A stretch of 44,768 nucleotides of DNA, from assembly GCA_030651515.1 (NCBI GenBank), contig JAUSEO010000026.1, forward strand, positions 1 through 44,768, given 5' to 3'. Position numbers and translations under genes: made by a program. This document shows positions 2,917 to 36,478 of this stretch, piece after piece (the stretch's first letter is position 1; every line of letters starts with the position of its first letter). Origin of the DNA: an archaeon. Its GTDB lineage: Archaea; Iainarchaeota; Iainarchaeia; Iainarchaeales; GW2011-AR10. The notes below the pieces were generated by a model that did no database searches, was not told the DNA's origin, and worked only from the letters and a program-made list of their open reading frames with translations.

Positions 2917-4389
2917 ATGCCTAGCATACTTGCAGTACTTGACCCGGTTTACAGGCTTTTGCCGGAAGTGAAAAAACCCGAAGTACAGGGCAGCCTCAAC
3001 AAGAGAATCACCTGGACGCTTGCAGCACTGGTTTTGTTTTTCATAATGGGAAACATCAGCGTGATTGGAATAGAGGCAAGCACTGCTGGGCAGCTTGCAC
3101 AGCTCCAGACAATACTTGCAAGCCAGATTGGAACCATAATAACAGTTGGAATCGGGCCTATTGTCCTTGCGTCCATAATCCTTCAGCTGCTTGTCGGCGG
3201 CGGGTTAATACAGGTTGACCTGACTGACACGGCAGAAAAAGCGCGGTTTACGTCCATGCAAAAACTGCTTGCAATCATTCTGTGCTTTGTTGAAGCAGGT
3301 GCTTACGTTTTCGGCGGGCTTCTCAGGCCGGCAGAGGGAATGTTTTTGTTTGTAATACTCCAGGTTGCAATTGGCTCGCTTATACTGATGTTTCTTGATG
3401 AAGTGGTTTCAAAGCACGGGATTGGTTCAGGAATCAGCCTCTTCATTGCAGGCGGGGTAGCCGGAGACGTTATCTGGAGGATATTCAACCCGCTTAACAG
3501 CCTGCGCGAACTCACTTTTTTTGGAAACGGGACAAATACTGGGGCAGGGCTAATCTGGCAGTTTTTTGCAGGCATACAATTTGACGGAGTGTTCTTGTCA
3601 TTTGTCACCAACCTTTTGCCGATTGTTTTCACGCTGGTGGTTTTCTTTGCCGTCGTGTTTGCAGAGGGAATGCACATAAACATCCCCATTGCAGTGGGAA
3701 GGGCGGGGCACAAGGCACGCTTTCCGGTAAAGTTTTTGTACGTTTCAAACATCCCTGTCATACTCGCAGCGGCATTGTTTGCAAACATTCAGCTCTGGTC
3801 AACCCTTTTGAGTGGCAGGCTTTCAACCGTGCCTGTGGTTGGGATTTTTCTTGAAAACGGGCTGAAGTTTTTGGCAACAATAGTGATTGCCCCGTTTCGC
3901 CTTGTTGAAAATTTTATCATCCAGGCTTCAAGCGAGGGGCTGGGTGTTTTCCAGACAATGGTAATGCAATTAGTACAGAGCATTACCACTTTGCAGCTTG
4001 TAGGGCTTGGGGGGCAGGTACTGCATGGCATTCTGTACATTTTTCTTTTGACCGTTTTGTGCGTTATTTTTGGAAAATTCTGGGTTGAAATGGCTGGCCA
4101 GGGGCCACAGGCTATTTCAAACCAGCTTGAAAAAAGCGGCATGTTCATCCCAGGGTTTCGAAGGGACCCAAGGGTCGTGAAGTCAATCCTTGAAAGGTAC
4201 ATCCCACCAATCAGCATCCTTGGCTCAATGTTTGTCGGGCTCTTGGCAGGGTTTGCGGACCTTACCGGTGCACTTGGAAGCGGGACAGGGATACTCCTGA
4301 CAGTTGGAATTGTTTACAGGCTTTATGAGGAGCTTGCAAAGCAGCAGTTAATCGAAATGCACCCTGTATTGGGGCAGTTCTTTGGTTGA
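2917..4389 (+). CDS. secY: Preprotein translocase subunit SecY
   Basis: 490-aa polytopic membrane protein at the canonical position after L15. Contains SecY-like blocks GIGPIVLASIILQLL and GILLTVGIVYRLYEE. Confidence 0.95.
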   Translation: MPSILAVLDPVYRLLPEVKKPEVQGSLNKRITWTLAALVLFFIMGNISVIGIEASTAGQLAQLQTILASQIGTIITVGIGPIVLASIILQLLVGGGLIQVDLTDTAEKARFTSMQKLLAIILCFVEAGAYVFGGLLRPAEGMFLFVILQVAIGSLILMFLDEVVSKHGIGSGISLFIAGGVAGDVIWRIFNPLNSLRELTFFGNGTNTGAGLIWQFFAGIQFDGVFLSFVTNLLPIVFTLVVFFAVVFAEGMHINIPIAVGRAGHKARFPVKFLYVSNIPVILAAALFANIQLWSTLLSGRLSTVPVVGIFLENGLKFLATIVIAPFRLVENFIIQASSEGLGVFQTMVMQLVQSITTLQLVGLGGQVLHGILYIFLLTVLCVIFGKFWVEMAGQGPQAISNQLEKSGMFIPGFRRDPRVVKSILERYIPPISILGSMFVGLLAGFADLTGALGSGTGILLTVGIVYRLYEELAKQQLIEMHPVLGQFFG

Positions 4390-4393
4390 GAAG
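4371..4393 (+). repeat. Direct repeat 1 (secY 3' end, includes the stop codon)
   Basis: ggggcagttctttggttgagaag recurs at 4475-4497 with one mismatch. Confidence 0.9.
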
Positions 4394-7296: not shown

Positions 7297-8052
7297 ATGG
7301 AAGTGAAAAAAATATTTGAAAAAGACAACCTGACCAGGATACTGGTCAGCGGGACAAGCACGGCTTTTGTGAACAGCATCAGAAGAGCCGCAATGAGCAG
7401 CGTGCCCGTAATGGCAATAGAAAATATCCTCATTTACGAGAATTCTTCAGTAATGATTGACGAACAGCTCTGCCACAGGCTCTCACTCCTGCCGATAAAG
7501 ACAGATATTAAGGCTTACAAGAAAGGCGAGAAAGTCAAAATGGTTCTTGAAAAAGAGGGGCCGTGCACTGTGTACAGCAAGGACATCCAGAGCACGGAAC
7601 CATCAATTGAAGTCATTGACAAAAAGGTCCCGATTGTAAAGCTTGCAAAAAACCAGACACTCAAACTGGATCTTGAAGCAGTTATGGGCATTGGCAAAGA
7701 GCATGCAAAATGGCAGCCGGCGCTTGTGGCATTCAACGAGGTCCCGGACATTTCAGTCAAGTTTGCAGACCCAAAGGAACAAAAAGCTTTTTTGGCGACG
7801 GTTCCAGAAGGAGTGTTCCAGGAAAAAGGCGGAAAACTCGTGCTTACCGACCCCGTGGCAACAGACATTGATGTGGCGGCAAAAGCAGTTGAAACCGCTC
7901 CAGGGCCACAGGAATTTGAAGCAAAAGAAGGTTCTTTTGTTTTGTCAGTTGAAAACTTTGGCCAGCTTGAGACAAGCGAGCTGCTCTCTGAAGCAGCAAA
8001 CGTTTTGTCAGAGAAAGCAAAACAGTTAAAGGAGGAACTCAAAAAAATATAG
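7297..8052 (+). CDS. rpoD: DNA-directed RNA polymerase subunit D (Rpo3)
   Basis: FVNSIRRAAMSSVPVMAIENILIYENSSVMIDEQLCHRLSLLPI is a RpoD/Rpb3 dimerisation-domain motif. ATG at 7297 is preferred over the 7210 start, which overlaps rps11. Confidence 0.85.
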   Translation: MEVKKIFEKDNLTRILVSGTSTAFVNSIRRAAMSSVPVMAIENILIYENSSVMIDEQLCHRLSLLPIKTDIKAYKKGEKVKMVLEKEGPCTVYSKDIQSTEPSIEVIDKKVPIVKLAKNQTLKLDLEAVMGIGKEHAKWQPALVAFNEVPDISVKFADPKEQKAFLATVPEGVFQEKGGKLVLTDPVATDIDVAAKAVETAPGPQEFEAKEGSFVLSVENFGQLETSELLSEAANVLSEKAKQLKEELKKI

Positions 8053-8094
8053 TTATGCAGGGGTACCGAAGTGGCCAAACGGGCAGGACTTAAG

Positions 8095-8187
8095 GAACGA
8101 GCCTTTGCGTGAGCTCGCGACGCTTATGTGTCCGGCCTGGTGGCCGGACGGTAATAATGTTGCAGTCAACGCGAAAAAGTTTGAGTG
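8095..8187 (+). other. tRNA-Leu intron (37/38 site) with a bulge-helix-bulge motif
   Basis: Central 4-bp helix is CTTA (nt 32-35) paired with TGAG near the intron 3' end. It is flanked by 3-nt bulges AG|G and TG|A. Outer helix is AAC/GTT. The intron interior carries copy E of the structured element. Confidence 0.75.
8098..8158 (-). repeat. Structured element, copy E (inside the tRNA-Leu intron)
   Basis: The + strand reads CGAGCctttgcgtgaGCTCG-CGACGCTTATGTGTCC-GGCCtggtGGCC-GGACGGTAATAAT. It is colinear with the reverse complement of copy D. Confidence 0.7.
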
Positions 8188-8234
8188 ATCCTGTGGCTTA
8201 GTGCCTTCGCAGGTTCGAACCCTGCCCCCTGCAT

Positions 8235-8350
8235 GAACCCTTGCGCTTAACAAACTGGCAAAAGAAACATTGTATTATTGTTCACTTGCCCATTTGTTAT
8301 TTGTTGGTTCACGGCGCGTATATGCCCTTTCTGCAAAATGGCAGTAATAC
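8235..8350 (-). repeat. Structured element, copy B (long form); also the likely promoter of the rpl18e operon
   Basis: The - strand reads GTATTACTGCC-ATTTTGCAGAAAG-GGCATATACGCGCCGTGAACC-[59-nt insert with imperfect 13-bp inverted repeat]-GCGCAAGGGTTC. On the + strand, GCGCGTATATGCC lies about 33 nt upstream of the ATG at 8354. Confidence 0.85.
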
Positions 8351-8353
8351 AAG

Positions 8354-8731
8354 ATGATGGAAAAATTGGTGTTGTTTATGGAAAACAAAAAAATTTTGAA
8401 AAAAAGCATTGCACTTGACAAGCATGCAAAAAAAACAGGGCATGCCATCTGGAAAGACCTGGCGGAAAAAACCAAAAAGTACAAAAACCACTCCTGTGTC
8501 GTGAACCTGTCAAAGCTTGAGCATCTTGCAAAAAAATCCGGCAAAAAAAATTTTTTCGTGCTTGGAAAAGTCCTTGGAAGCGGGGAAATTGTTTCAGGAT
8601 TGAACGTGGCTGCAATTGAGTTTTCAAAAAGCGCAGTTGAAAAAATCGTGCACGCAAAAGGCAGTGCCCTGAGCGTTGAGGCATTTGTCCAGAAAAACCC
8701 GCAGAAATCAGAAGTGGTGATAGTGAAATGA
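8354..8731 (+). CDS. rpl18e: 50S ribosomal protein L18e
   Basis: AIWKDLAEKTKK...VVNLSKLEHLAKKSG...VLGKVLGSGEI...AIEFSKSAVEKI fits the L18e pattern. It heads the L18e-L13-S9-RpoN cluster. Confidence 0.8.
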   Translation: MMEKLVLFMENKKILKKSIALDKHAKKTGHAIWKDLAEKTKKYKNHSCVVNLSKLEHLAKKSGKKNFFVLGKVLGSGEIVSGLNVAAIEFSKSAVEKIVHAKGSALSVEAFVQKNPQKSEVVIVK

Positions 8732-10586: not shown

Positions 10587-10624
10587 TCACCTAAATGCTA
10601 AAGATGATAGTAACGGAGATTTCA

Positions 10625-11293
10625 ATGAAAAAAATAATTCCAAAACTTTTACTCGCATTTTTGTTTTTAGCAGTTACACCAACGGTTTTTGGAGCCAGTG
10701 ACTGCAATCAACACGAGGAAGGGACACACAACTGGGTACCTTATTGGGGAGGGTTACAGTTTCTAGAGAGATACGATGATTATATTATAACCTACCAAAA
10801 TTTTGCTTGGAACCAAAGGAATTTCAATAATATGAAAAATAGATATATAGATGGGAATGTAGACTACATGTACGAAATTAGAAGGCCGGGAGATGCTAAT
10901 AATAGCCCCCAAAAAGATTATTGGGATTATTGGAAGAGAACCAGGCCAGATTACTGTGAAGGCGTTTATTTTACCAATCTCCCAAACCCCATTGAAGATA
11001 ATTGGAGTGAGGAAGCAGATTGGTGGATGACTGAGTGTGATAACCTTTTTCCTTTCACACATGACCCGGATGATGAGGAATTTGAGATTAAAAGCCTAGA
11101 TGAGCACAACGAACTAGAACCTTACAAAGAATATTATGTAACTACAAAATTTTGGCGGGATCCCGAAGACAGAGGAAAAAGAATGGAAATAAGATCTGAA
11201 TCAGAGTATTGCGGAATTTTTAGTTTTCCCTTCTGTACGGATACAATTGGTTTTCACTGGTGCACAATGACCATAGACCAAATAAGAGCGTGA
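10625..11293 (+). CDS. Secreted Cys-rich protein, unknown family (P1)
   Basis: Signal peptide MKKIIPKLLLAFLFLAVTPTVFGA. Six Cys are conserved with the paralog at 30588-31211. Trp/acidic-rich. No family recognised. Confidence 0.7.
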   Translation: MKKIIPKLLLAFLFLAVTPTVFGASDCNQHEEGTHNWVPYWGGLQFLERYDDYIITYQNFAWNQRNFNNMKNRYIDGNVDYMYEIRRPGDANNSPQKDYWDYWKRTRPDYCEGVYFTNLPNPIEDNWSEEADWWMTECDNLFPFTHDPDDEEFEIKSLDEHNELEPYKEYYVTTKFWRDPEDRGKRMEIRSESEYCGIFSFPFCTDTIGFHWCTMTIDQIRA

Positions 11294-11302
11294 AGTGAAA
11301 CA

Positions 11303-12073
11303 ATGAATCTAAAACTTTTAGTAACCGGCATGATTTTTTTAATAGTAGTAATATCCATTGCCGTGGGAATCAGCACAAAAAATAATATACAACCCAATAC
11401 TAGTGGCGCCAAATTAAATGGCTACCCAGCAGAAAATTGGGAAAAAATAGAAATTTTCAGAGCGCCGAGCGGCGAGATATTCATTTCAAGTTTTCCTCTT
11501 ATTTCAAATGAAAACGAAATTCAGGCATTCAAACAAAAGTCAATAGAGAGACTAAATGGCCTACAAGAAGGGGTTGTTTACCACAATGTTGTCGTAACAT
11601 TTTCAAAAGAACTGAATGAAGAAGAAGTAAATGAACTCTCTGAAATTATCAACATTCTGAGATTAAAATACATAGCTGACCCAGAAGGAACAGGAACAAT
11701 TGGTTTTCCACTAGAGGAAGAAGAAAGAGAATATCTGGCCAATCTGGAACAGGCAATCAAAACTAAAATGTCTGACTGTTCTAATTTAGATAAAAAGCTT
11801 TCACCATTAGAAACAAGTGAAAGAGAAATCAAGAAAAAGGAACTGCTAGAACAGTGTGATGCATACAAAGACTTCAAACTCGTTAAGGGGTTTGTTGCGG
11901 CAGATGTAGTAGATTCAAAAGAAAATCTTCTTGAACTAGCAAACCATCAAAACGTGTTATTTGTTGATGTAGGCCCAATCGAACTATTAGAAAGGTACCC
12001 AAATGCATTCATTAAACCAATAAAAGATGGGTGGTATGAATATTCAAAAATAGTAAATAATGAAATTTCTTAA
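11303..12073 (+). CDS. N-terminally membrane-anchored protein, unknown family (P2)
   Basis: Single N-terminal TM (LLVTGMIFLIVVISIAVGI). Paralog at 31219-31974 shares VTFSKELNEEE, PEGTG and VDVGP-ELL blocks. Confidence 0.7.
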   Translation: MNLKLLVTGMIFLIVVISIAVGISTKNNIQPNTSGAKLNGYPAENWEKIEIFRAPSGEIFISSFPLISNENEIQAFKQKSIERLNGLQEGVVYHNVVVTFSKELNEEEVNELSEIINILRLKYIADPEGTGTIGFPLEEEEREYLANLEQAIKTKMSDCSNLDKKLSPLETSEREIKKKELLEQCDAYKDFKLVKGFVAADVVDSKENLLELANHQNVLFVDVGPIELLERYPNAFIKPIKDGWYEYSKIVNNEIS

Positions 12074-12117
12074 AGAAAAGACTGATTTTTTATTAACAAA
12101 CTAACAAAAGGTTATTG

Positions 12118-13110
12118 ATGCCTCAAAAATATGTTGATTCAAGCAAATTTATACAACAAATTGTCTTTTTTTTAAAGCCCGACAAGTGGAAATTAGCACT
12201 ATTTTCATTGGCAATTTTGCTCGGGATAATTACAAGTATGATAAGGCATGAAAACGTATTAGCCTCCTCCATGATTTTTTTTCTGCCGATTTTTATTTTT
12301 ATATTCATATCGCCGGTCTCAGCTATCATTGGAGTGATTGACCCCAAACTCAAAATCTTTGGAAATTTTTACGGGCTTATTGAAGCTAATATCATTTTTT
12401 CCATCGCCTTGTTGTTTATTTATTTCTATATTCTGGCTTGTTTTATTGTTTTTTCGTTTAAGTATTTAAGAAAAAAGTTTGATATAAAATTAATTGCCAT
12501 TTTATTGTTTCTTTTTTTTGTCTTGTCAATTTCATTTCTTGGATGGTTAGACTTGATTATCAGCCCAACTTTGGAAACAACAGTACTTTTAATAAAAAAA
12601 GTCGGAGTTTCTTTATTTTCTTCCTACATTTTTACCCTTATAGTTTTAAGTGGCCTAATTTTGCTGAAAAAATTTTTAACAATGCCATTAATTAAAAAAC
12701 TAGCAATAGTTTTATCAATTATTTTGGTTTATTTAGCAATTTTCTACCCTGCTTTCCAAGGAAACATTATTCCAAAAACATTGGACATAGAAGAACGCAA
12801 CCTTGCACTTTACGCCATAGAAGAGACAGAAAGCCAGCTTGACATACAAGGCGACGGGATACTACAGTATGAAGTTGTTAGCTTCAAAAGACCGGTAGAA
12901 CACATCGTAGTACACAACAATTTTCCAGGGAGTAACAATGTATGGCAGGAGACATGCGATGTGGAAATAAAAATGAAAACCAGGACATTTTTTGGACAGC
13001 CGTTCTATGAAATAATAGTTTACCTCAATTCCACAGAAAACTTCAATTACAATTACTGTGACTTGGAAATACCAAACGAGTGCGACTTTGACCCAAACTG
13101 CAAACCCTGA
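12118..13110 (+). CDS. Polytopic membrane protein with a Cys-containing C-terminal domain, unknown family (P3)
   Basis: About 7 hydrophobic segments, then a roughly 110-aa soluble tail (..ETCDVEIKMK..NYCDLEIPNECDFDPNCKP). A+T-rich. Confidence 0.6.
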   Translation: MPQKYVDSSKFIQQIVFFLKPDKWKLALFSLAILLGIITSMIRHENVLASSMIFFLPIFIFIFISPVSAIIGVIDPKLKIFGNFYGLIEANIIFSIALLFIYFYILACFIVFSFKYLRKKFDIKLIAILLFLFFVLSISFLGWLDLIISPTLETTVLLIKKVGVSLFSSYIFTLIVLSGLILLKKFLTMPLIKKLAIVLSIILVYLAIFYPAFQGNIIPKTLDIEERNLALYAIEETESQLDIQGDGILQYEVVSFKRPVEHIVVHNNFPGSNNVWQETCDVEIKMKTRTFFGQPFYEIIVYLNSTENFNYNYCDLEIPNECDFDPNCKP

Positions 13111-19805: not shown

Positions 19806-20004
19806 GTTTCAGTTTTAGTTCCCTTATTTTTTGTTTTCCGTTTTTTGTCTTTGCAAGCCTTTGATAAAAAAGATTAGCGTTTTCAATCTGCGCATTGATG
19901 AATGGAGTGAGCTGGCGCTGACAGTTCCTCATGTCTTGCTTGCACTTCAACGCCCACCATTCAATGTGGTCAAAAAGTTTTTTCACCTTCATTTCAGCCG
20001 CCAA
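19795..20004 (-). CDS. Small ORF (69 aa) coupled to the upstream nucleotidyltransferase-fold gene
   Basis: Its start overlaps the stop region of the 19994-20563 gene by 11 nt. It fills the otherwise empty 19806-19993 gap. No recognisable motif. Confidence 0.3.
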   Translation of the reverse strand: MAAEMKVKKLFDHIEWWALKCKQDMRNCQRQLTPFINAQIENANLFYQRLAKTKNGKQKIRELKLKPIG

Positions 20005-20563
20005 GCCTGTATTTTTTTACGAGTTTTTTCAGTTCACCGATTTTTTTCTCATCAAGTTTTTCAGAGTAAATTATCCTCAAATGCCTTCCATCTTCAAGGT
20101 CCTTTGGGCTTTTCAGCAGTTCTTCTTTGAAAGCAATGTTTGTTTCAATGCTTGAAAAATAAAATGGAAGATTGGTTAAAGGGAGTTTTACTCTTTCAAC
20201 TATTTGTTTTTCGTCAAGCGCGTCTTTTGCAAACTTTACCCCCATTTCCGGGATAAACTGGTTCTTTCTTGTATAACGCAAGGCCATGTTTTCACTCAGG
20301 TAATCGTTAAACAAATCCAAGGGGTTTGCCCCCTGAATGCATTCAAAACCAGATTTTAAGAGGTCATTGTGTAGTTGTTTGAAGTTTTCAAAAAAAAGCT
20401 TTTCAATAATAAGGTCAATGTCTTCTGTGCCCCTGCTCCGCCCATGGAAAATAGCGACAAACCCAGAGACAATAACATATTTTACTTTGTTTTTGTCCAC
20501 GACTTGTATGAAGTCTTCGACAAACTTGTTCAGGATATTTTTGTCTTTTATCTGCCTTTCCAT
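19994..20563 (-). CDS. Nucleotidyltransferase-fold protein (MNT/AbiEii-like)
   Basis: VSGFVAIFHGRSRGTEDIDLII matches the G[SR]-x(n)-D-x-D minimal NTase motif. One of the few - strand genes, in an A+T-rich stretch. Confidence 0.55.
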   Translation of the reverse strand: MERQIKDKNILNKFVEDFIQVVDKNKVKYVIVSGFVAIFHGRSRGTEDIDLIIEKLFFENFKQLHNDLLKSGFECIQGANPLDLFNDYLSENMALRYTRKNQFIPEMGVKFAKDALDEKQIVERVKLPLTNLPFYFSSIETNIAFKEELLKSPKDLEDGRHLRIIYSEKLDEKKIGELKKLVKKYRLGG

Positions 20564-20668
20564 TAAATAGAATGGCTTTAAAACTGTTTAAATTGGTTTT
20601 GGAAATGAGCTTTGACATAAACAAAAAGGTACAAATACAGGTAACTGCTTAGTAATTAATGTGGAAAA

Positions 20669-21202
20669 ATGCGGAAAGTTGCCTTGATTTTTTTACTGGG
20701 GCTTGCCTTGAATGTTTTTGCAGGTCCGCTTGGCCAAGTGGATATAAGGGTTGAAACTTTCAAGCAATACCCTGGTGAAGAGTCAAGTGTTTTTTACCAG
20801 GACAATGAAATATTCACCGAGATTACAGTTATTAACAATTCTTCCACTAGCCTTGAACTGGAGGTTAATTATGAACTTGACTCTGCGGAGGGGGAATTTG
20901 GGGCTATTCAAAGAAGCAAGCAATTAAGTGTGCCTGCAAAGGAATCACGTTCTTTTTCCGACTTGTTCCAGGTGCCGATGGGAGAGGGGATTGCTTCAGG
21001 GACGTTTATAGTAAAAGCCAGTGCAAAAGAGGAAAACCAAAACCTAGGCCAGGGGGGTTCTGTGACCGGGGACGCGTTTATAACCATTTTTTCAGGAAAC
21101 GGGAATGGCGAGGCATTAAATGTGGATGAAACCGGTTTTTTTCTTCTGCCAATAATCGGGTTTATGGCTCTTTTTTTACTCAAAAAAAAGGATTCTTTTT
21201 GA
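20669..21202 (+). CDS. Secreted beta-rich protein with a C-terminal TM anchor
   Basis: Signal MRKVALIFLLGLALNVFAG. C-terminal FFLLPIIGFMALFLLKKK. Confidence 0.6.
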   Translation: MRKVALIFLLGLALNVFAGPLGQVDIRVETFKQYPGEESSVFYQDNEIFTEITVINNSSTSLELEVNYELDSAEGEFGAIQRSKQLSVPAKESRSFSDLFQVPMGEGIASGTFIVKASAKEENQNLGQGGSVTGDAFITIFSGNGNGEALNVDETGFFLLPIIGFMALFLLKKKDSF

Positions 21203-26861: not shown

Positions 26862-26883
26862 AAACCCTTGCGCGGGTTTTAAA
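26862..26883 (+). terminator. Hairpin AAACCC-TTGCGC-GGGTTT plus T-run after the PIN gene (also hairpin 2 of element copy C)
   Basis: A 6-bp stem followed by TTTT on the + strand, and by T7 on the - strand. Confidence 0.45.
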
Positions 26884-26971
26884 ACTTTGGCAATTGAAGC
26901 AAATATTCGATATTTCTTTTGCCAAAGTTTTACGGCGCATATTTGCCTGGTCTTTGACCAGGCAGTAATAT
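26862..26971 (-). repeat. Structured element, copy C (long form); also the likely promoter of the rpo7 operon
   Basis: The - strand reads ATATTACTGCC-TGGTCAAAGACCA-GGCAAATATGCGCCGT-[perfect 13-bp inverted repeat AAAACTTTGGCAA, 25-nt spacer]-AAACCCGCGCAAGGGTTT. On the + strand, GCGCATATTTGCC lies about 36 nt upstream of the ATG at 26977. Confidence 0.85.
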
Positions 26972-30587: not shown

Positions 30588-31211
30588 ATGAAAAAATTGC
30601 TTGCAAAAGTTGCGCTTGTTTTAGGGGTTCTATTTATTTCTGGCACAGCCTTTGGCGCTAAAGCTTGTACTGAACATGAAGAAGGGACTCACGACTGGGT
30701 GCCGGATTGGGATGGAAATGTGAGTTTTATATATCGTGAGGATTCAACTATTACTCATCAAACTTTTTCTTGGGTTCAAAACAATTTGGATAATTTTATG
30801 AGCAAAAATGCATATTACCAATATGAACTCAAGCGACCAGATAAAGAAGAGTACTGGGACTATTGGAAACTGATAATCCCGTTTGTTTGTATACGCAAGG
30901 GCTATTTTACTAATCTCCCAAACCCGATTGAAGACCAATGGTCGGAAGAAACGGACCTGTGGTTTATTTTAGGATGCGGAAGACCTTCATGGGGGTTTGA
31001 CGAAGAATTTGAAATTAAAAGCCTAGACCCAAATGCACTGACAGCTGACGTTACATATTTTGTAGATGCAAACTTTTGGCGCGATACTGAAGACAGGGGA
31101 AAACCAATGACTTTGCAGTCTGAATCCGAATTTTGTGGCATTAATTATTTTTGTAATCGTGGCCAGGTATTCCACTGGTGTGAAATGACAGAGCAGAGGA
31201 TAACTGGGTGA
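30588..31211 (+). CDS. Secreted Cys-rich protein, paralog of P1 (P1')
   Basis: Signal MKKLLAKVALVLGVLFISGTAFGA. Shares C-x-HEEGTH-WVP, YWDYWK, YFTNLPNPIED-WSEE, EEFEIKSLD, FWRD-EDRGK, SESE-CGI and FHWC-MT with 10625-11293. Confidence 0.7.
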   Translation: MKKLLAKVALVLGVLFISGTAFGAKACTEHEEGTHDWVPDWDGNVSFIYREDSTITHQTFSWVQNNLDNFMSKNAYYQYELKRPDKEEYWDYWKLIIPFVCIRKGYFTNLPNPIEDQWSEETDLWFILGCGRPSWGFDEEFEIKSLDPNALTADVTYFVDANFWRDTEDRGKPMTLQSESEFCGINYFCNRGQVFHWCEMTEQRITG

Positions 31212-32991: not shown

Positions 32992-33312
32992 TCAGCGTTT
33001 GAATTTTTTTATTACTTCTTTTTCAAGTGCAGCCAGGGATTTTTCAACCGCGGTCAAAATGTTCCATTCATCGTGAGTTGCATCAAAAGAATGGCCGGGG
33101 CAGACAAGGCGGGAGTGAATGGAGTATTTTCTCCTTTCCCCTTCAATTTCATGCTCTTTGACGTGGATTGAAAGCCTCGTGTCAGGGTGCTTGATTATTC
33201 TGGCAAGTTTTCTGAAAGTATTGAATGCCTTTGTTTCAGCCTTTGCCTTTTCAAAACTGTCCGTATCGTGAAAACCGATAAATTCAACGTTTAACTGTTC
33301 AGGCTCCATCAT
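32992..33312 (-). CDS. HPF/RaiA (S30AE)-like ribosome-associated protein candidate
   Basis: 106 aa. The pattern LNVEFIGFHDTDSF..KAF.TF.KLARI...LSIHVKEH....YSIHSRLVCPGHSFDATHDEWNILTAVEKSLAALEKEVIKKFKR is colinear with bacterial HPF (beta-alpha-beta3-alpha). Judged by eye only. Confidence 0.45.
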   Translation of the reverse strand: MMEPEQLNVEFIGFHDTDSFEKAKAETKAFNTFRKLARIIKHPDTRLSIHVKEHEIEGERRKYSIHSRLVCPGHSFDATHDEWNILTAVEKSLAALEKEVIKKFKR

Positions 33313-33403
33313 AGTTCAACCACAAATTTAATTTTGACAAACGTGGTTAAAAATTGTTTTCCTCCAGAAAAAAAGCAACATTCTACATAAAAAAATTTAT
33401 TTT

Positions 33404-33691
33404 TCATTTTTTTGCAGAGCGAAAATCAGAAGTGTACGAGTAGAGCTTTACGACGATTGCCAAGGCGCATAGGAACAGGAAAAGTTTTAACTGCCAGGGA
33501 AGTTTTTCTGCCCCCGGAAAAGACAGGCTTGGGTCAAAGAGAAAAAGAACCGACACCAAAATGAAGGCGGTTAAAACCAATTCAACTACTACAAGCCCAA
33601 CGTGGCGCTTGTCTTTGCGCGCTTGGCGGACTTTTTCCTTTATGCCCTCGTTTGCCCGGCGGGTTATTTCACGGATTTTTGCTGTTGGCAT
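33404..33691 (-). CDS. Small membrane protein (2 TM), unknown
   Basis: Basic N-terminus, then LVVVELVLTAFILVSVLFLF and LFLFLCALAIVVKLY. Confidence 0.45.
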   Translation of the reverse strand: MPTAKIREITRRANEGIKEKVRQARKDKRHVGLVVVELVLTAFILVSVLFLFDPSLSFPGAEKLPWQLKLFLFLCALAIVVKLYSYTSDFRSAKK

Positions 33692-33706
33692 GGCAAAAGA
33701 AAAGAC

Positions 33707-34627
33707 TCATTTGTTGTTTAAATTAGTTTCATTCTTTAGTTTATCTAAAACATCGTCAGAAGACATTATTTCAATTGCCCCGAATTCTTGAATAGCCTGT
33801 TTAATTCCTTCGTTTGGCAAAATATGCAATGCTAATGACGGCACAAAAATTGGAACTTTTTGTTTATATGCAGTTTTTGTTTGAACCATAGCACCACCCA
33901 TAGCGCCACTTGCAATATTTATGATTCCATTAGATATGCCTGACGTGATTCTGTTCCTTTGTACGAACGAATAATTTGCACCACCAAAATTTGGCGAATA
34001 TTCGCTAACTAGTAGCCCTCTTTCCTTGATTGTATTTAATAATTTTTTATTTTCTTCAGGGTATAGATTAAAAAAACCCGTTCCCATAATCGAAATAGTT
34101 TTCCCACCAGTTTGCTGTAAGACTGCATTGTGTGCAGCTGTATCGATTCCAAGTGCTCCGCCACTAACAATAACTACCCCCTTTTTTGCTAAATTGCTTG
34201 CAATAACCGATGTCAAATCTAGTGCTTTTTCCGAGGCAGTACGACTTCCAACAATAGCAATTTTATTTTCACTATATAATAGGGATTTGTCACCCCAGAG
34301 GAATAAAAAGATTGGAGGTAAAGGGATGTTTTTCAACTGGCGAGGATAATCTTTATCGAATAAGGTAAGTATTTCGATTTTGTTTTTTTTGCAGTCATGT
34401 ATAGTTTTTAGATAATTTTCGTCAGATGCACTTTTGAGTTTTTCAATCTCTTTTACCATTAAATTAGTAATACCTTTAGTTTTTTCTAAATCTAAATTAG
34501 CAGCATTAAATACTCCGTCAATAGTTTCAAATCTTTGAACTAAATATAAGATTCGTGATGGTCCAAGACCATGAACATTATTTAATTTCATCAATTTTAC
34601 GAGTTGAGAATCAGTAAGTTCAGTCAT
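33707..34627 (-). CDS. dprA: DprA/Smf-like (SLOG/Rossmann) DNA-processing protein
   Basis: IAIVGSRTASEKALD...VIVSGGALGIDTAAHNAVL...ISIMGTGFFNLYPEEN...SEYSP...FVQRNRITSGIS..INIASGAMGGAMVQ. The N-terminus is HhH-like. Confidence 0.8.
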   Translation of the reverse strand: MTELTDSQLVKLMKLNNVHGLGPSRILYLVQRFETIDGVFNAANLDLEKTKGITNLMVKEIEKLKSASDENYLKTIHDCKKNKIEILTLFDKDYPRQLKNIPLPPIFLFLWGDKSLLYSENKIAIVGSRTASEKALDLTSVIASNLAKKGVVIVSGGALGIDTAAHNAVLQQTGGKTISIMGTGFFNLYPEENKKLLNTIKERGLLVSEYSPNFGGANYSFVQRNRITSGISNGIINIASGAMGGAMVQTKTAYKQKVPIFVPSLALHILPNEGIKQAIQEFGAIEIMSSDDVLDKLKNETNLNNK

Positions 34628-35235
34628 TATTTCCCACCCATTTCATTGATGCCTAAACATAATGCTGTAACACTACACGTAGATTTGCTTTTTTTTAACA
34701 ATTTGGCGCATTCGAGTAAATGTATCCCTGTCGTTTTAGTATCATCCAACAGCAAAATGTTTGTTTCTTGCGAATCTAACTTGCGAGTCAGAACCATAGT
34801 ATCTTTGATGCTAGTATATCTATCATATAAACTGGCAGTGTATGAAAATTTTTTAGTCTCTTTTATTCGCTTAATTATGTTTTCATTCTTAAAAGAATTT
34901 TTCTTTGCGAGTTTGACTGCAAGCGGTAATAATGTAGGTGAATATTCATCTATTTTTGAAGAAGGCAATACGATTAAAAGGTCGATTTCTTGAAAACGAT
35001 TGTGTGAAATTATAGCTTGTAATGCGGGTAAAAAATAGTCGGAGAGGTCTTTTGTTTTTGATTCTATAATTTTTTCGGAATACTCATCACTTTTTGTATT
35101 TTTTTTAAAATATTTTCTGGGTGCATGAACTGGCACTTTAAGACCTGGATATAGCCGATACCAGTTAGCAGAGTCTGTTTCCCAGGGATATTTTCTTTGC
35201 GTACCAGTCAAATTAACTTCAATAAAACCCCCCAT
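34627..35235 (-). CDS. Phosphoribosyltransferase-like protein (ComF/ComFC-like, no zinc finger)
   Basis: PRPP-loop-like NILLLDDTKTTGIHLLECAKLL. Its stop TAA overlaps the dprA ATG by 1 nt (TAATG). Confidence 0.65.
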   Translation of the reverse strand: MGGFIEVNLTGTQRKYPWETDSANWYRLYPGLKVPVHAPRKYFKKNTKSDEYSEKIIESKTKDLSDYFLPALQAIISHNRFQEIDLLIVLPSSKIDEYSPTLLPLAVKLAKKNSFKNENIIKRIKETKKFSYTASLYDRYTSIKDTMVLTRKLDSQETNILLLDDTKTTGIHLLECAKLLKKSKSTCSVTALCLGINEMGGK

Positions 35236-35251
35236 CAAATCCCCTTTTTAG

Positions 35252-35302
35252 CTATTATAATAACGTTTTCTTATTATAATAACGTTTTCTTATTATAATA
35301 TC
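35252..35302. repeat. Tandem direct repeat, 2.6 copies of the 19-bp unit TTATTATAATAACGTTTTC, in the promoter region of the PRTase-dprA operon
   Basis: Read directly. Each unit carries a TATA-like TTATTATAATAA. The last unit ends about 20 nt upstream of the ATG at 35235 (- strand). Confidence 0.85.
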
Positions 35303-35386
35303 TTTACTAGAGACCTTACTGCCGGTGCCAATTTTGTGTAAAAGGTAGCCTTTATTTACGCAACATGCTCTAACCTTATCCAAAAT

Positions 35387-35824
35387 TTATTCTTTTTGTT
35401 CTCCTTCAAACCCAAGTTCGCGGTCAAGTTCCTGGGCAGTTTTCTTCATTTTCTGGAAAATTCGCTCGATGTCTTCCTCGATTTCCTCTATAGTGCGGAG
35501 CATGCTTGAACTGCGCGGGAAATAAGACCTGCCCTGCCTTACAATGAGGCCGGAGCGCTGGAGGTTGTTTAAGTGGTTGATTATTGAGCCGCGGCTCATT
35601 TCAAGCCTCTTTGCCAGAAAAGTTGAAGTTAACGGTTTTTGTGCTTCAGAACCCTTTACAACTTCTTTAAAGACAGAGGAAGCGGTTTTCCCGCGGGCTA
35701 TTGGCTCGAAAAAGCCAAAAGACTGGCAAATCCAGTCCAATTCCGCAAAAGGGTCATGCGAAAAAGGCTTCTCCACCCTTTTAATCACGATTTTAAAGGA
35801 TGCCCGCCTAATGTTTTCCGGCAT
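35387..35824 (-). CDS. Winged-helix transcriptional regulator, divergent from grpE-dnaK-dnaJ
   Basis: LTSTFLAKRLEMSRGSIINHLNNLQRSGLIVRQGRSYF is an HTH/wing. A TTG at 35848 is an alternative start. Confidence 0.6.
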   Translation of the reverse strand: MPENIRRASFKIVIKRVEKPFSHDPFAELDWICQSFGFFEPIARGKTASSVFKEVVKGSEAQKPLTSTFLAKRLEMSRGSIINHLNNLQRSGLIVRQGRSYFPRSSSMLRTIEEIEEDIERIFQKMKKTAQELDRELGFEGEQKE

Positions 35825-35911
35825 AAAAGAAAGAGCCCCCCAAAACAAATAAAAGAGTTTTGTTTAAAAAAGTTTGTAATTGATTAAATATTTTAGTCAA
35901 AAGTGTTTTTG

Positions 35912-36478
35912 ATGCATATTCACAAAAAAGACGAAAAAATGCCTCCAGAACACCAAAAAGATGGCAAAGAGGCCTTGGAGGCACGGCTTGCAGAGCTTGA
36001 AAAGGGGCTTGCGGAGCAGGTGGAAAAGGCAAACGAGTTCAAAGAGATTGCCCAGCGCGTGCAGGCAGAGTTTGAAAACTTTTCCAAACGCACGGAAAAA
36101 GAAAAGGCCGAGCACAAAAAGATTGCAGGGGCAGGCATCATTTTCGAACTTTTGGCAGCCCTTGACAGTTTTGACAGCGCGATTGAAGCCATGAAAAAGC
36201 ACGGGAAAACGGAAAAAGATGGGGGAATGCATGGACTTGTTCTTTTGAAAAAGCAGTTATTTGGAGTTCTTGAAAGGCATGGGCTTAAGGAAATTCCCGC
36301 AATTGGGGAAAAATTTGACCCGCACTTGCATGAGTGTTTTCTGAGCGTGAATGAAAAAGGAAAGGAAGATGAAATAGTTTTGGGGGAAATCCAGAAAGGT
36401 TACACGCTTAACTCGCTTGTGCTTCGGCCAAGCAAAGTGAAAATAAACAAGTTGCACGAAGAAAAAAAAGATGAGTAA
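35912..36478 (+). CDS. grpE: Nucleotide exchange factor GrpE
   Basis: Coiled N-terminus, then RVQAEFENFSKRTEKEK...LLAALDSFD...GEKFDPHLHE...GYTLNSLVLRPSKV. Confidence 0.9.
   Translation: MHIHKKDEKMPPEHQKDGKEALEARLAELEKGLAEQVEKANEFKEIAQRVQAEFENFSKRTEKEKAEHKKIAGAGIIFELLAALDSFDSAIEAMKKHGKTEKDGGMHGLVLLKKQLFGVLERHGLKEIPAIGEKFDPHLHECFLSVNEKGKEDEIVLGEIQKGYTLNSLVLRPSKVKINKLHEEKKDE

Follow-up and report, generated by a model that had tools for sequence, protein, structure and literature searches.

A small pseudoknotted element inside and beside a canonical tRNA-Leu(UAA) intron in an Iainarchaeum-type archaeon

How archaeal tRNA introns arise and change their content, and how split and permuted tRNA genes come about, are open questions that have been argued mainly from similarity between introns. 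They are taken up here for a tRNA-Leu(UAA) gene on contig JAUSEO010000026.1 (GenBank assembly GCA_030651515.1), which was analysed over positions 1 to 44,768 (44,768 nt; hereafter the window). The intron of this gene holds a copy of a small structured element. Members of this one family are found in the canonical intron, in the trailer of the same tRNA, in the trailers of other tRNAs and in one of their introns, and at ordinary intergenic sites. The intron is a standard member of the canonical bulge-helix-bulge (BHB) class; the element resembles several known systems in its behaviour, but has the defining features of none of them.

The intron itself is best compared with the canonical archaeal BHB introns (EndA), with which it shares its position, the hBHBh' geometry, a normal tRNA fold and the same site in orthologous genes. 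It differs from them in being long, at 93 nt, and in holding a pseudoknotted module that is also found outside introns. Transposition of tRNA introns in Thermoproteales was described in work from 2010, as summarised in PMC4090602. The likeness to that system lies in the fact that the tRNA-Leu(UAA) intron and a tRNA-Gly(UCC) intron of a related genome carry related sequence, which points to movement or exchange of intron content at the DNA level. In a family of transposed introns every member would have a BHB; here, in contrast, most relatives of the sequence are not introns, have no BHB and lie in trailers and spacers, and the position of the intron predates the sequence that is shared. In Caldiarchaeum, a tRNA-Thr gene is disrupted by an integrating mobile element of 1.8 kb that encodes a recombinase (PMC3293823). 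There, as here, a tRNA gene, tRNA fragments and repeated DNA occur together, the present counterpart being a tRNA 3' fragment duplicated around a pair of elements at locus L006 (L numbers denote loci outside the window). The present element, however, is only about 60 nt long and non-coding, and no recombinase was identified for it.

Archaeal C/D box small RNAs (sRNAs) also occur as tRNA-sRNA co-transcripts. A box C/D sRNA lies inside a tRNA-Trp intron (Singh et al. 2004, listed among the references of PMC4090602). What the element has in common with intron-encoded and tRNA-linked sRNAs is that it is a small structured unit, found in a tRNA intron and beside tRNAs, and so placed that tRNA-processing enzymes could release it. 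Unlike them, it lacks C, D, C' and D' boxes as well as a k-turn consensus and a guide region, and its fold is a pseudoknot with a hairpin. Neither TGATGA nor CTGA occurs in the intron or the other copies, and Rfam reports no C/D family there.

Several short hairpin repeats of bacteria also invite comparison, namely repetitive extragenic palindromic (REP) sequences and bacterial interspersed mosaic elements (BIMEs), Rickettsia palindromic elements, and miniature inverted-repeat transposable elements (MITEs). Like these, the element sits at gene ends in both orientations and has insertion polymorphism, nested insertions and one in-frame coding insertion (in the ribosomal protein S9 gene of L001). 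Unlike these, the family is archaeal, combines an asymmetric conserved loop with a pseudoknot and is strongly linked to tRNAs. Single copies have no terminal inverted repeats, no target duplication of fixed length accompanies every copy, as it would in MITEs, and no transposase was identified. The bases 5' of the first helix of the element have no shared tetranucleotide of the type found with REPs and palindrome-associated transposable elements (PATEs). In the partial genomes that were covered, a gene for the cognate Y1_Tnp transposase of such repeats was seen only in L003. It is an IS200/IS605-type Y1 transposase gene (PF01797; L003 5392-5766) near the ribosomal cluster of a 61% relative, and no intergenic copies of the element were found in the ~47 kb of the L003 genome that was searched.

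Among ribozymes, pistol is loosely alike in its sequence of parts: a loop-pseudoknotted hairpin, a helix, an asymmetric loop and a second hairpin. In pistol, however, the pseudoknot partner lies inside the helix that corresponds to P3 of the element, whereas in the element it precedes P3. The layouts of C/D box, H/ACA, k-turn, loop E, hepatitis delta virus (HDV)-like and pistol RNAs were compared by eye and set aside; the boxes or the order of strands do not fit.

The tRNA-Leu(UAA) gene and its intron

The tRNA-Leu(UAA) gene occupies 8057-8233 on the plus strand, and its 93-nt intron lies at position 37/38. Its parts are as follows.

8057-8094, plus strand: 5' exon of tRNA-Leu(UAA), acceptor stem to position 37 (fold of the spliced exons and ARAGORN -i)
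8095-8187, plus strand: canonical (37/38) BHB intron, 93 nt (strict BHB scan)
8188-8233, plus strand: 3' exon of tRNA-Leu(UAA), 46 nt, ending at discriminator A8233
8083-8088 (h), 8089-8092 (H), 8093-8095 (bulge) and 8096-8098 (h'), plus strand: 5' strand of the BHB (strict scan)
8179-8181 (h'), 8182-8185 (H), 8186-8188 (bulge) and 8189-8194 (h), plus strand: 3' strand of the BHB (strict scan)
8099-8159, plus strand: copy I of the element, inside the intron (model R2, 61.8 bits, E=2.6e-13)

An earlier note on this DNA had claimed that the tRNA folds canonically once 8095-8187 is removed, and it does. When the exons 8057-8094 and 8188-8233 are joined, they form an 84-nt class II tRNA-Leu(taa) with a clean cloverleaf, a long variable arm and the anticodon loop CTTAAGA, and the intron falls at the position of a canonical archaeal BHB intron. 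The splice-site motif that the same note described is recovered exactly by a strict BHB scan around the element. Its two strands read GCAGGA-CTTA-AG^G-AAC and GTT-TGAG-TG^A-TCCTGT, with 93 nt excised. In them, helices of 6 bp (outer), 4 bp (central) and 3 bp (inner) are separated by two bulges of 3 nt, the complete hBHBh' arrangement. This BHB is built of tRNA sequence and of intron-specific flanks (AAC 8096-8098, GTTTGAG 8179-8185) that lie outside the element. The archaeal splicing endonuclease should excise the intron there, as predicted from the sequence.

Standard searches overlook the gene. ARAGORN without its intron option reports no tRNA at 8057-8350, and the locus is not reported by Rfam at the gathering score; both searches miss it because of its intron. 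With the -i option, ARAGORN reports a single tRNA gene with an intron (8056-8234; intron of 93 nt), but sets the intron 1 nt off, so that the gene is miscalled as Ile(tat). The calls that came with this 1-nt misplacement were Ile or Ser. The gene is flanked by rpoD and the gene for ribosomal protein L18e, within a cluster of ribosomal-protein and RNA-polymerase genes, and this placement is conserved in all relatives. In kind it is ordinary and essential-looking, a tRNA-Leu(UAA) gene whose 37/38 intron is canonical.

The relation of the intron sequence to the intergenic copies was assessed with model R2, a covariance model made from nine non-intronic copies with the intron sequences left out. 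Among the tRNA-Leu introns, that of the window scores 61.8 bits, followed by L001 (43 bits), L004 (35.9 bits) and L002 (27.8 bits), and the copy in the tRNA-Gly(UCC) intron of L008 scores 58 bits. Since R2 was trained without introns and yet detects the intron copies, the similarity is not an artefact of training. On these scores, the intron copy is assigned to the same family as the intergenic copies.

The element and its copies

The element is ~60 nt long and folds into a pseudoknot and a hairpin. S1 is a 6-bp hairpin, usually GAACCC/GGGTTC, with the conserved loop UUGCGY. S2 is a 4-bp H-type pseudoknot, in which GCGY of the S1 loop pairs with RCGC three bases past S1. P3 is an A/U-rich helix of 4-6 bp, usually GUAU/AUAC, and a conserved asymmetric internal loop sets a 5' R opposite a 3' GUA. 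P4 is a hairpin of 8-9 bp whose sequence differs between copies while its pairing is kept. In copy I, these helices are S1 (C)GAGC/GCTC(G), S2 GCGT/ACGC, P3 TTAT/ATAA and P4 GTCCGGCC-TGGT-GGCCGGAC; the minimum-energy fold of this copy recovers S1, P3 and P4 (z=-3.4).

Pairing is preserved throughout the family. Across 21 copies from the window and its relatives, 92.8% of the modelled cells are paired, and both partners have changed in 17 of the 23 pairs. Covariation scores 0.429, whereas shuffles score 0.149 (0/500 reach the observed value) and slid partners at most 0.10. The fourth pair of the pseudoknot occurs as UA (6), CG (4) and GC (1). Minimum-energy folds of single copies contain S1, P3 and P4, with z-scores of -3 to -6, and in copy C the S2 strands also pair, around a nested hairpin. 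About 20 nucleotides are invariant and are concentrated in loops and junctions; long insertions (59 nt in copy B, ~53 nt in copy C, 37 nt in L009) are confined to the pseudoknot loops. The basal pair of P4 is a U.G wobble in 15 of 19 copies, and among the other modelled pairs G.U fills 5 of 351 cells as against 17 for A.C. As a guide to the folding strand this balance is ambiguous, with many of the pairs coming from one subfamily or closing loops, against the 15 U.G at the P4 base.

A resemblance of another kind was seen in copy I. Its P4 and the next bases (GTGGCCGGACGG, 8128-8149) look like the D-arm region of the same tRNA-Leu (GTGGCCAAACGG, 8066-8083) at 10/12 bases, and a weak Rfam tRNA-Sec alignment set this P4 as a D-arm. 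The likeness is possibly a coincidence.

Repeat and pattern searches find five copies in the window: A, I, B, C and D. Copy I is given above, and the remaining copies, with the flanking repeat of copy A, are as follows.

4370-4393, minus strand: 24-nt direct repeat on the right-hand flank of copy A, the 3' end of secY with its stop codon
4414-4473, minus strand: copy A, antisense, between secY and an EMC3-like gene; 80-81 bits
4474-4497, minus strand: second copy of the 24-nt secY-end repeat, directly adjoining copy A at its 5' end
8235-8352, plus strand: copy B; 53.9 bits with model R1, its 3' half detected by R2 with 38 bits
26862-26973, plus strand: copy C, filling the spacer between a PIN-domain gene and rpoE'; 52.8 bits
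44629-44688, minus strand: copy D, antisense, downstream of a RIO/Bud32-type kinase gene; 68-70 bits

Copy B has the orientation of copy I and is separated from discriminator A8233 by the single base T8234, so that the statement of a second copy close behind the tRNA 3' end stands, and the 46-nt 3' exon (8188-8233) does lie between two direct copies of the element. The statement that the intron interior is related to the other copies also stands, but copy D is the closest to it only marginally: its identity to the intron copy is 65%, against 56-63% for the other copies of the window. Among all copies, those nearest to the window intron copy are L008d and L013. Its longest exact match with copy B is 6 nt. 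Copy D is followed tail to tail by a degenerate inverted partner. The 24-nt repeat beside copy A, which translates as ...GQFFG*, has two matches, against an expectation of 0.00.

Copies B and C are both interrupted. A 59-nt AT-rich nested hairpin (8247-8305) lies in copy B between S2a and S1b, and copy C holds a nested hairpin of ~53 nt (~26879-26931) after S1. The two insertions (8247-8305 and 26879-26931) are mutually homologous AT-rich hairpins (TTAAnAAAC-TGGCAA ... TTGCC-GTTT) that occupy different pseudoknot loops, after S2a in B and after S1b in C, and the orthologous C site in assembly JACQJF01 (L015) is without the nested insertion. They have the appearance of either an optional domain or a second hairpin repeat nested in the element. 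The genes that follow copies B and C may have downstream starts. The longest open reading frame (ORF) of L18e begins at ATG 8354, just past copy B, while alignment with relatives (ggtgttttttATGgaaaa) places the conserved start probably at ATG 8378; an exact-protein look-up with the window L18e protein gave no match. For rpoE', the start is perhaps TTG 27013 (MFSIHTF...), not ATG 26977.

Copies elsewhere repeat the association with tRNA genes. In JACQJF01 (L008), a tRNA-Gly(UCC) gene has a 105-nt strict-BHB intron at the canonical site with a copy of the element in it, and a second copy lies 2 nt past its 3' end, the same arrangement as in the tRNA-Leu gene of the window. A copy begins 2 nt past a tRNA-Gly(GCC), and the tRNA-Val beside it has an inverted copy that ends 1 nt ahead of its 5' end. 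In L006, a copy begins 1 nt past a tRNA 3' fragment, and in L007 one lies 35 nt past a tRNA-Ser(CGA). Several copies thus begin 1-2 nt past a discriminator, at four different tRNAs, and eight of the nine tRNA-linked copies are in sense orientation. Other copies follow stop codons directly (C, L009, L015) or lie antisense inside operons (A, D and the copy in the L001 S9 gene); the copy at L008 6854 is also antisense to its operon. Tail-to-tail pairs occur at three loci, and each pair resembles a unit with long inverted ends.

The tRNA fragment in the region L006 3031-3260 deserves separate mention. It is a tRNA 3' portion, comprising the T-arm and acceptor strand (GAGAGTTCGAATCTCTCTGGGGCTA, minus strand), with an AT-rich TATA-like stretch before it and the element copy after it; no 5' half was detected within 3 kb. 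A second, 20-nt fragment of a similar tRNA 3' end stands on the other side of the element pair. The portion could be a pseudogene fragment or the 3' half of a split tRNA.

With regard to distribution, the RpoD homologues of the window assign it to Candidatus Diapherotrites/Iainarchaeum (DPANN). GTDB, JGI metagenomes and viral contigs were scanned with a degenerate pattern to which four of the five window copies conform. In the 185,579 species genomes of GTDB this pattern found four sites only, in two Iainarchaeum assemblies from groundwater, of which JACQJF01 is close to the window genome (RpoE' 91% identical). The JGI scan gave one true match (L013); the other four of its five matches (L010, L011, L012, L014) were rejected as chance matches with no hairpin, and the sole match on a viral contig (L019), which also has no hairpin, was not accepted as a family member. 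Rfam 15 gives no gathering-score match to any copy over the window, and the looser thresholds of E<=1 (window) and E<=10 (8000-8400, 400 nt) bring up no relevant family either. Literature searches found no published description of the element. As far as the scans reach, the family is found only in Iainarchaeum-type genomes.

Gain, loss and exchange between relatives

The relatives used for comparison cover a range of distances, their RpoD identity to the window being 94% for L004/L005, 84% for L001, 61% for L002 and 51-52% for L017/L018. Over this range the sites of A, B and C and that of the L001 S9 gene differ between relatives, which is the presence/absence polymorphism characteristic of MITEs. 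Copy A is not in L001 or L002, where the secY-EMC3 spacer is ~105 nt as against ~241 nt in the window. Copy B is present in L004/L005 and not in L001 or L002. The copy of JACQJF01 (L015) at the C site is uninterrupted and differs completely in its P4, and a partial second copy accompanies it; L016 (a 69% relative) has at this site a 13-nt spacer with no element. L001 has an extra copy that the window does not have, antisense and in frame, which extends the gene for ribosomal protein S9 by 57 nt (19 codons) in its N-terminal tail. As called (L001 11750-11860 region), this gene encodes 163 aa, against 144 in the window and 142 in L002; unless the insertion is translated, a downstream ATG would be the true start.

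Sequence is also shared between introns and intergenic sites. The tRNA-Leu intron of L001 starts with a 25-mer that is identical to window copy A and to the intergenic copies of L006. In L004, the intron and the downstream copy have 31 identical nt in common, as against 6 in the window. These matches indicate that intron and intergenic copies exchange sequence.

Other repeats and compositional islands were noted in the window. Its low-GC islands at 11000-13000, 20000-21000 and 33000-36000 have 31-39% GC, against ~45-50% elsewhere; they contain DprA and HTH genes and no transposase. The island at 33000-36000 holds, on the minus strand of an otherwise plus-strand window, a DprA-like gene, an HTH regulator and several ORFs that match no family, and it may be acquired DNA. 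A 60-nt direct repeat (77% identity) at 10967-11026 and 30903-30962 lies inside ORFs 10595-11293 and 30588-31211, neither of which has a Pfam match; these are probably paralogous genes in low-GC stretches.

Origin and spread of the element

The earlier note proposed two origins for the situation at tRNA-Leu(UAA), and neither is upheld. According to the first, the intron was created by insertion of the element at 37/38. In its favour, the element fills most of the intron, S1 starts at intron nucleotide 1-2 in L001, and the tRNA-Gly(UCC) of L008 also has an element-bearing intron at the canonical site. However, the orthologous tRNA-Leu(UAA) gene between rpoD and L18e has an intron at the same 37/38 position in every relative examined. 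In L017 and L018 the content of this intron is unrelated, with no model match and no element, and in L002 it includes only the 5' part of the element (the S1 hairpin and S2 pseudoknot). Element-free introns at the same site in distant relatives imply that the intron position predates the element and has a wider distribution. Moreover, the BHB flanks in the window lie outside the element, and an insertion would have needed, by chance, to supply the complement of the anticodon loop. Creation of the intron by insertion is consequently regarded as improbable. On the simplest reading of the sequences, the intron is old, its content is replaced over time and the element is cargo within it. The direction of change between element-bearing and element-free introns can be fixed only with a phylogeny, and a module found in L017, described below, is a caveat.

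According to the second proposal, the family is derived from BHB introns and mobile in that form. An unrestricted scan for BHBs of 3+4+3 bp gave ~1000 matches per strand against ~470 in shuffles, which is uninformative, and was replaced by a scan restricted to the borders of the copies. The restricted scan found both real introns (Leu-UAA and Gly-UCC). At the 13 non-intronic copies, a minimum of 3 bp in the outer helices left only two candidates, one a low-complexity artefact and the other an artefact of a T-arm, and none of these copies is therefore bordered by a credible BHB. What stands of this proposal is that the family is dynamic, copies being gained, lost and replaced between close relatives; movement bounded by BHBs is not borne out.

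With modest assurance, the element is taken to be a structured repeat peculiar to this lineage. Its spread and homogenisation would take place at the DNA level, with a preference for the borders of tRNA genes. This reading is drawn from the presence/absence polymorphism, the replacement of variants at fixed sites and the nested insertions, as well as from the in-frame coding insertion, the antisense copies and the occasional target duplications. Under such a mechanism, the element would have been acquired by, or exchanged into, an older tRNA-Leu intron at a later time. Its spread would proceed by an insertion process that sometimes leaves target duplications of 13-24 nt, and gene conversion between copies would homogenise the family. 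The fold may be the feature that the mobilising machinery recognises. Copy B would be a recent arrival beside a tRNA whose intron already held a copy.

Several observations weigh against this repeat reading. No link was found between the family and a transposase, an integrase or a reverse transcriptase. Flanking direct repeats accompany only 3 of 15 copies: 24 nt at copy A, ~18 nt at the L006 pair, where they are imperfect repeats of the tRNA 3' end, and 13 nt in L017. The possibility that the 24-nt flank of copy A acts as a guide antisense to secY was rejected, any such flank being limited to those 3 of 15 copies and not a feature of the family. Compensatory changes between orthologous intron copies (window and L004) look like selection on the fold, as does the U.G wobble at the base of P4, and both would fit a functional RNA equally well. 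In L017 (6616-6810), a P3-P4 module (ATATGTG-GGCTGTT-TTC-AACAGCC-CGGTAATAT) lies antisense ~28 nt past the secY stop, at the site and in the orientation of window copy A, with a related P4 loop and with the 13-nt secY-end repeat on its far side, while two closer relatives have no copy at this site. The presence of the module in L017 means that the family is old, and at the copy A site it could reflect long-term retention instead of mobility. Finally, copy numbers refer to the ~0.2 Mb of related sequence that was searched and are not genome-wide counts.

The tRNA linkage and the covariation lead to a different explanation, in which the element is a functional small RNA module produced via tRNA processing. 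The intron copy would be freed, and probably circularised, by the splicing endonuclease and a ligase, and RNase Z, cutting behind the discriminator, would release the trailer copies. A protein or an RNA would bind to the conserved loops (UU, RCG, R/GUA), and the gene family would duplicate as archaeal C/D box sRNA genes do. This accords with the prevalence of sense orientation among tRNA-linked copies (8/9), with the starts 1-2 nt past the discriminators of four tRNAs and with the presence of the element in the introns of two tRNAs, Leu-UAA and Gly-UCC. It accords as well with the strong covariation, which extends to orthologous intron copies, with the sense-strand U.G wobble at the P4 base (15/19 copies) and with the confinement of insertions to pseudoknot loops, in the manner of the optional stems of functional RNAs. 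However, at least four copies are antisense to an operon (A, D, the L001 S9-gene copy and L008 6854), G.U pairs elsewhere are rare (5/351 cells) and outnumbered by A.C (17), which is unusual for selection on one RNA strand, and neither direct reading nor Rfam finds C/D or H/ACA boxes. Argued from sequence, the explanation merits attention but is doubtful. It is not exclusive of the DNA-level repeat, and the two are compatible with each other.

More specific roles fare less well. A self-cleaving ribozyme of a new class, or a cis-regulatory RNA that senses a ligand or protein, trimming transcripts at tRNAs and gene ends, would suit the compact pseudoknotted fold, the ~20 invariant nucleotides in loops and junctions, the optional stems of variable length in loops and the position of copies exactly at points of transcript processing. 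Against it stand the antisense copies and the lack of any Rfam ribozyme or riboswitch match, even at E<=10 on the 400-nt query, and such a role is quite improbable. A signal acting at the DNA level on downstream genes, such as a promoter or another protein-binding site, could be read into the TATA-like GTATATG/CATATTTG that lies ~30-35 nt upstream of in-frame ATGs at 8354 (copy B) and 26977 (copy C). Yet the TAT bases belong to helix P3, and the promoter reading of the TATATG motif was rejected because these bases covary as a helix. Copies also lie in an intron, antisense in operons and inside a coding region, and by homology the real L18e start is probably 8378, so that such a signal appears very improbable. 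A broader and still speculative explanation, thought unlikely, would make the element a new class of small RNA with a pseudoknot, either a ribozyme or an sRNA that binds protein. It would arise through tRNA processing, by the routes set out above for intron and trailer copies, and its copies would re-enter the genome and actively remodel tRNA genes. Re-entry might proceed via an RNA intermediate, given the variable target duplications of 13-24 nt. The RNA would fill introns, place direct repeats on both sides of tRNA 3' halves and give rise to tRNA fragments such as those of L006.

To our knowledge, very few non-coding RNAs have been described from DPANN archaea, and the element is a candidate new structured RNA of this group. 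At the tRNA-Leu(UAA) locus, the content of an intron appears to be replaceable while its position remains fixed, and the exchange is visible among close relatives. A tRNA 3' exon between direct repeats is the arrangement expected of a precursor to exon loss, duplication or splitting. If the element were indeed an undescribed RNA that re-enters the genome, it would offer a live model for the turnover of intron content and for the origin of split tRNA genes in DPANN archaea.

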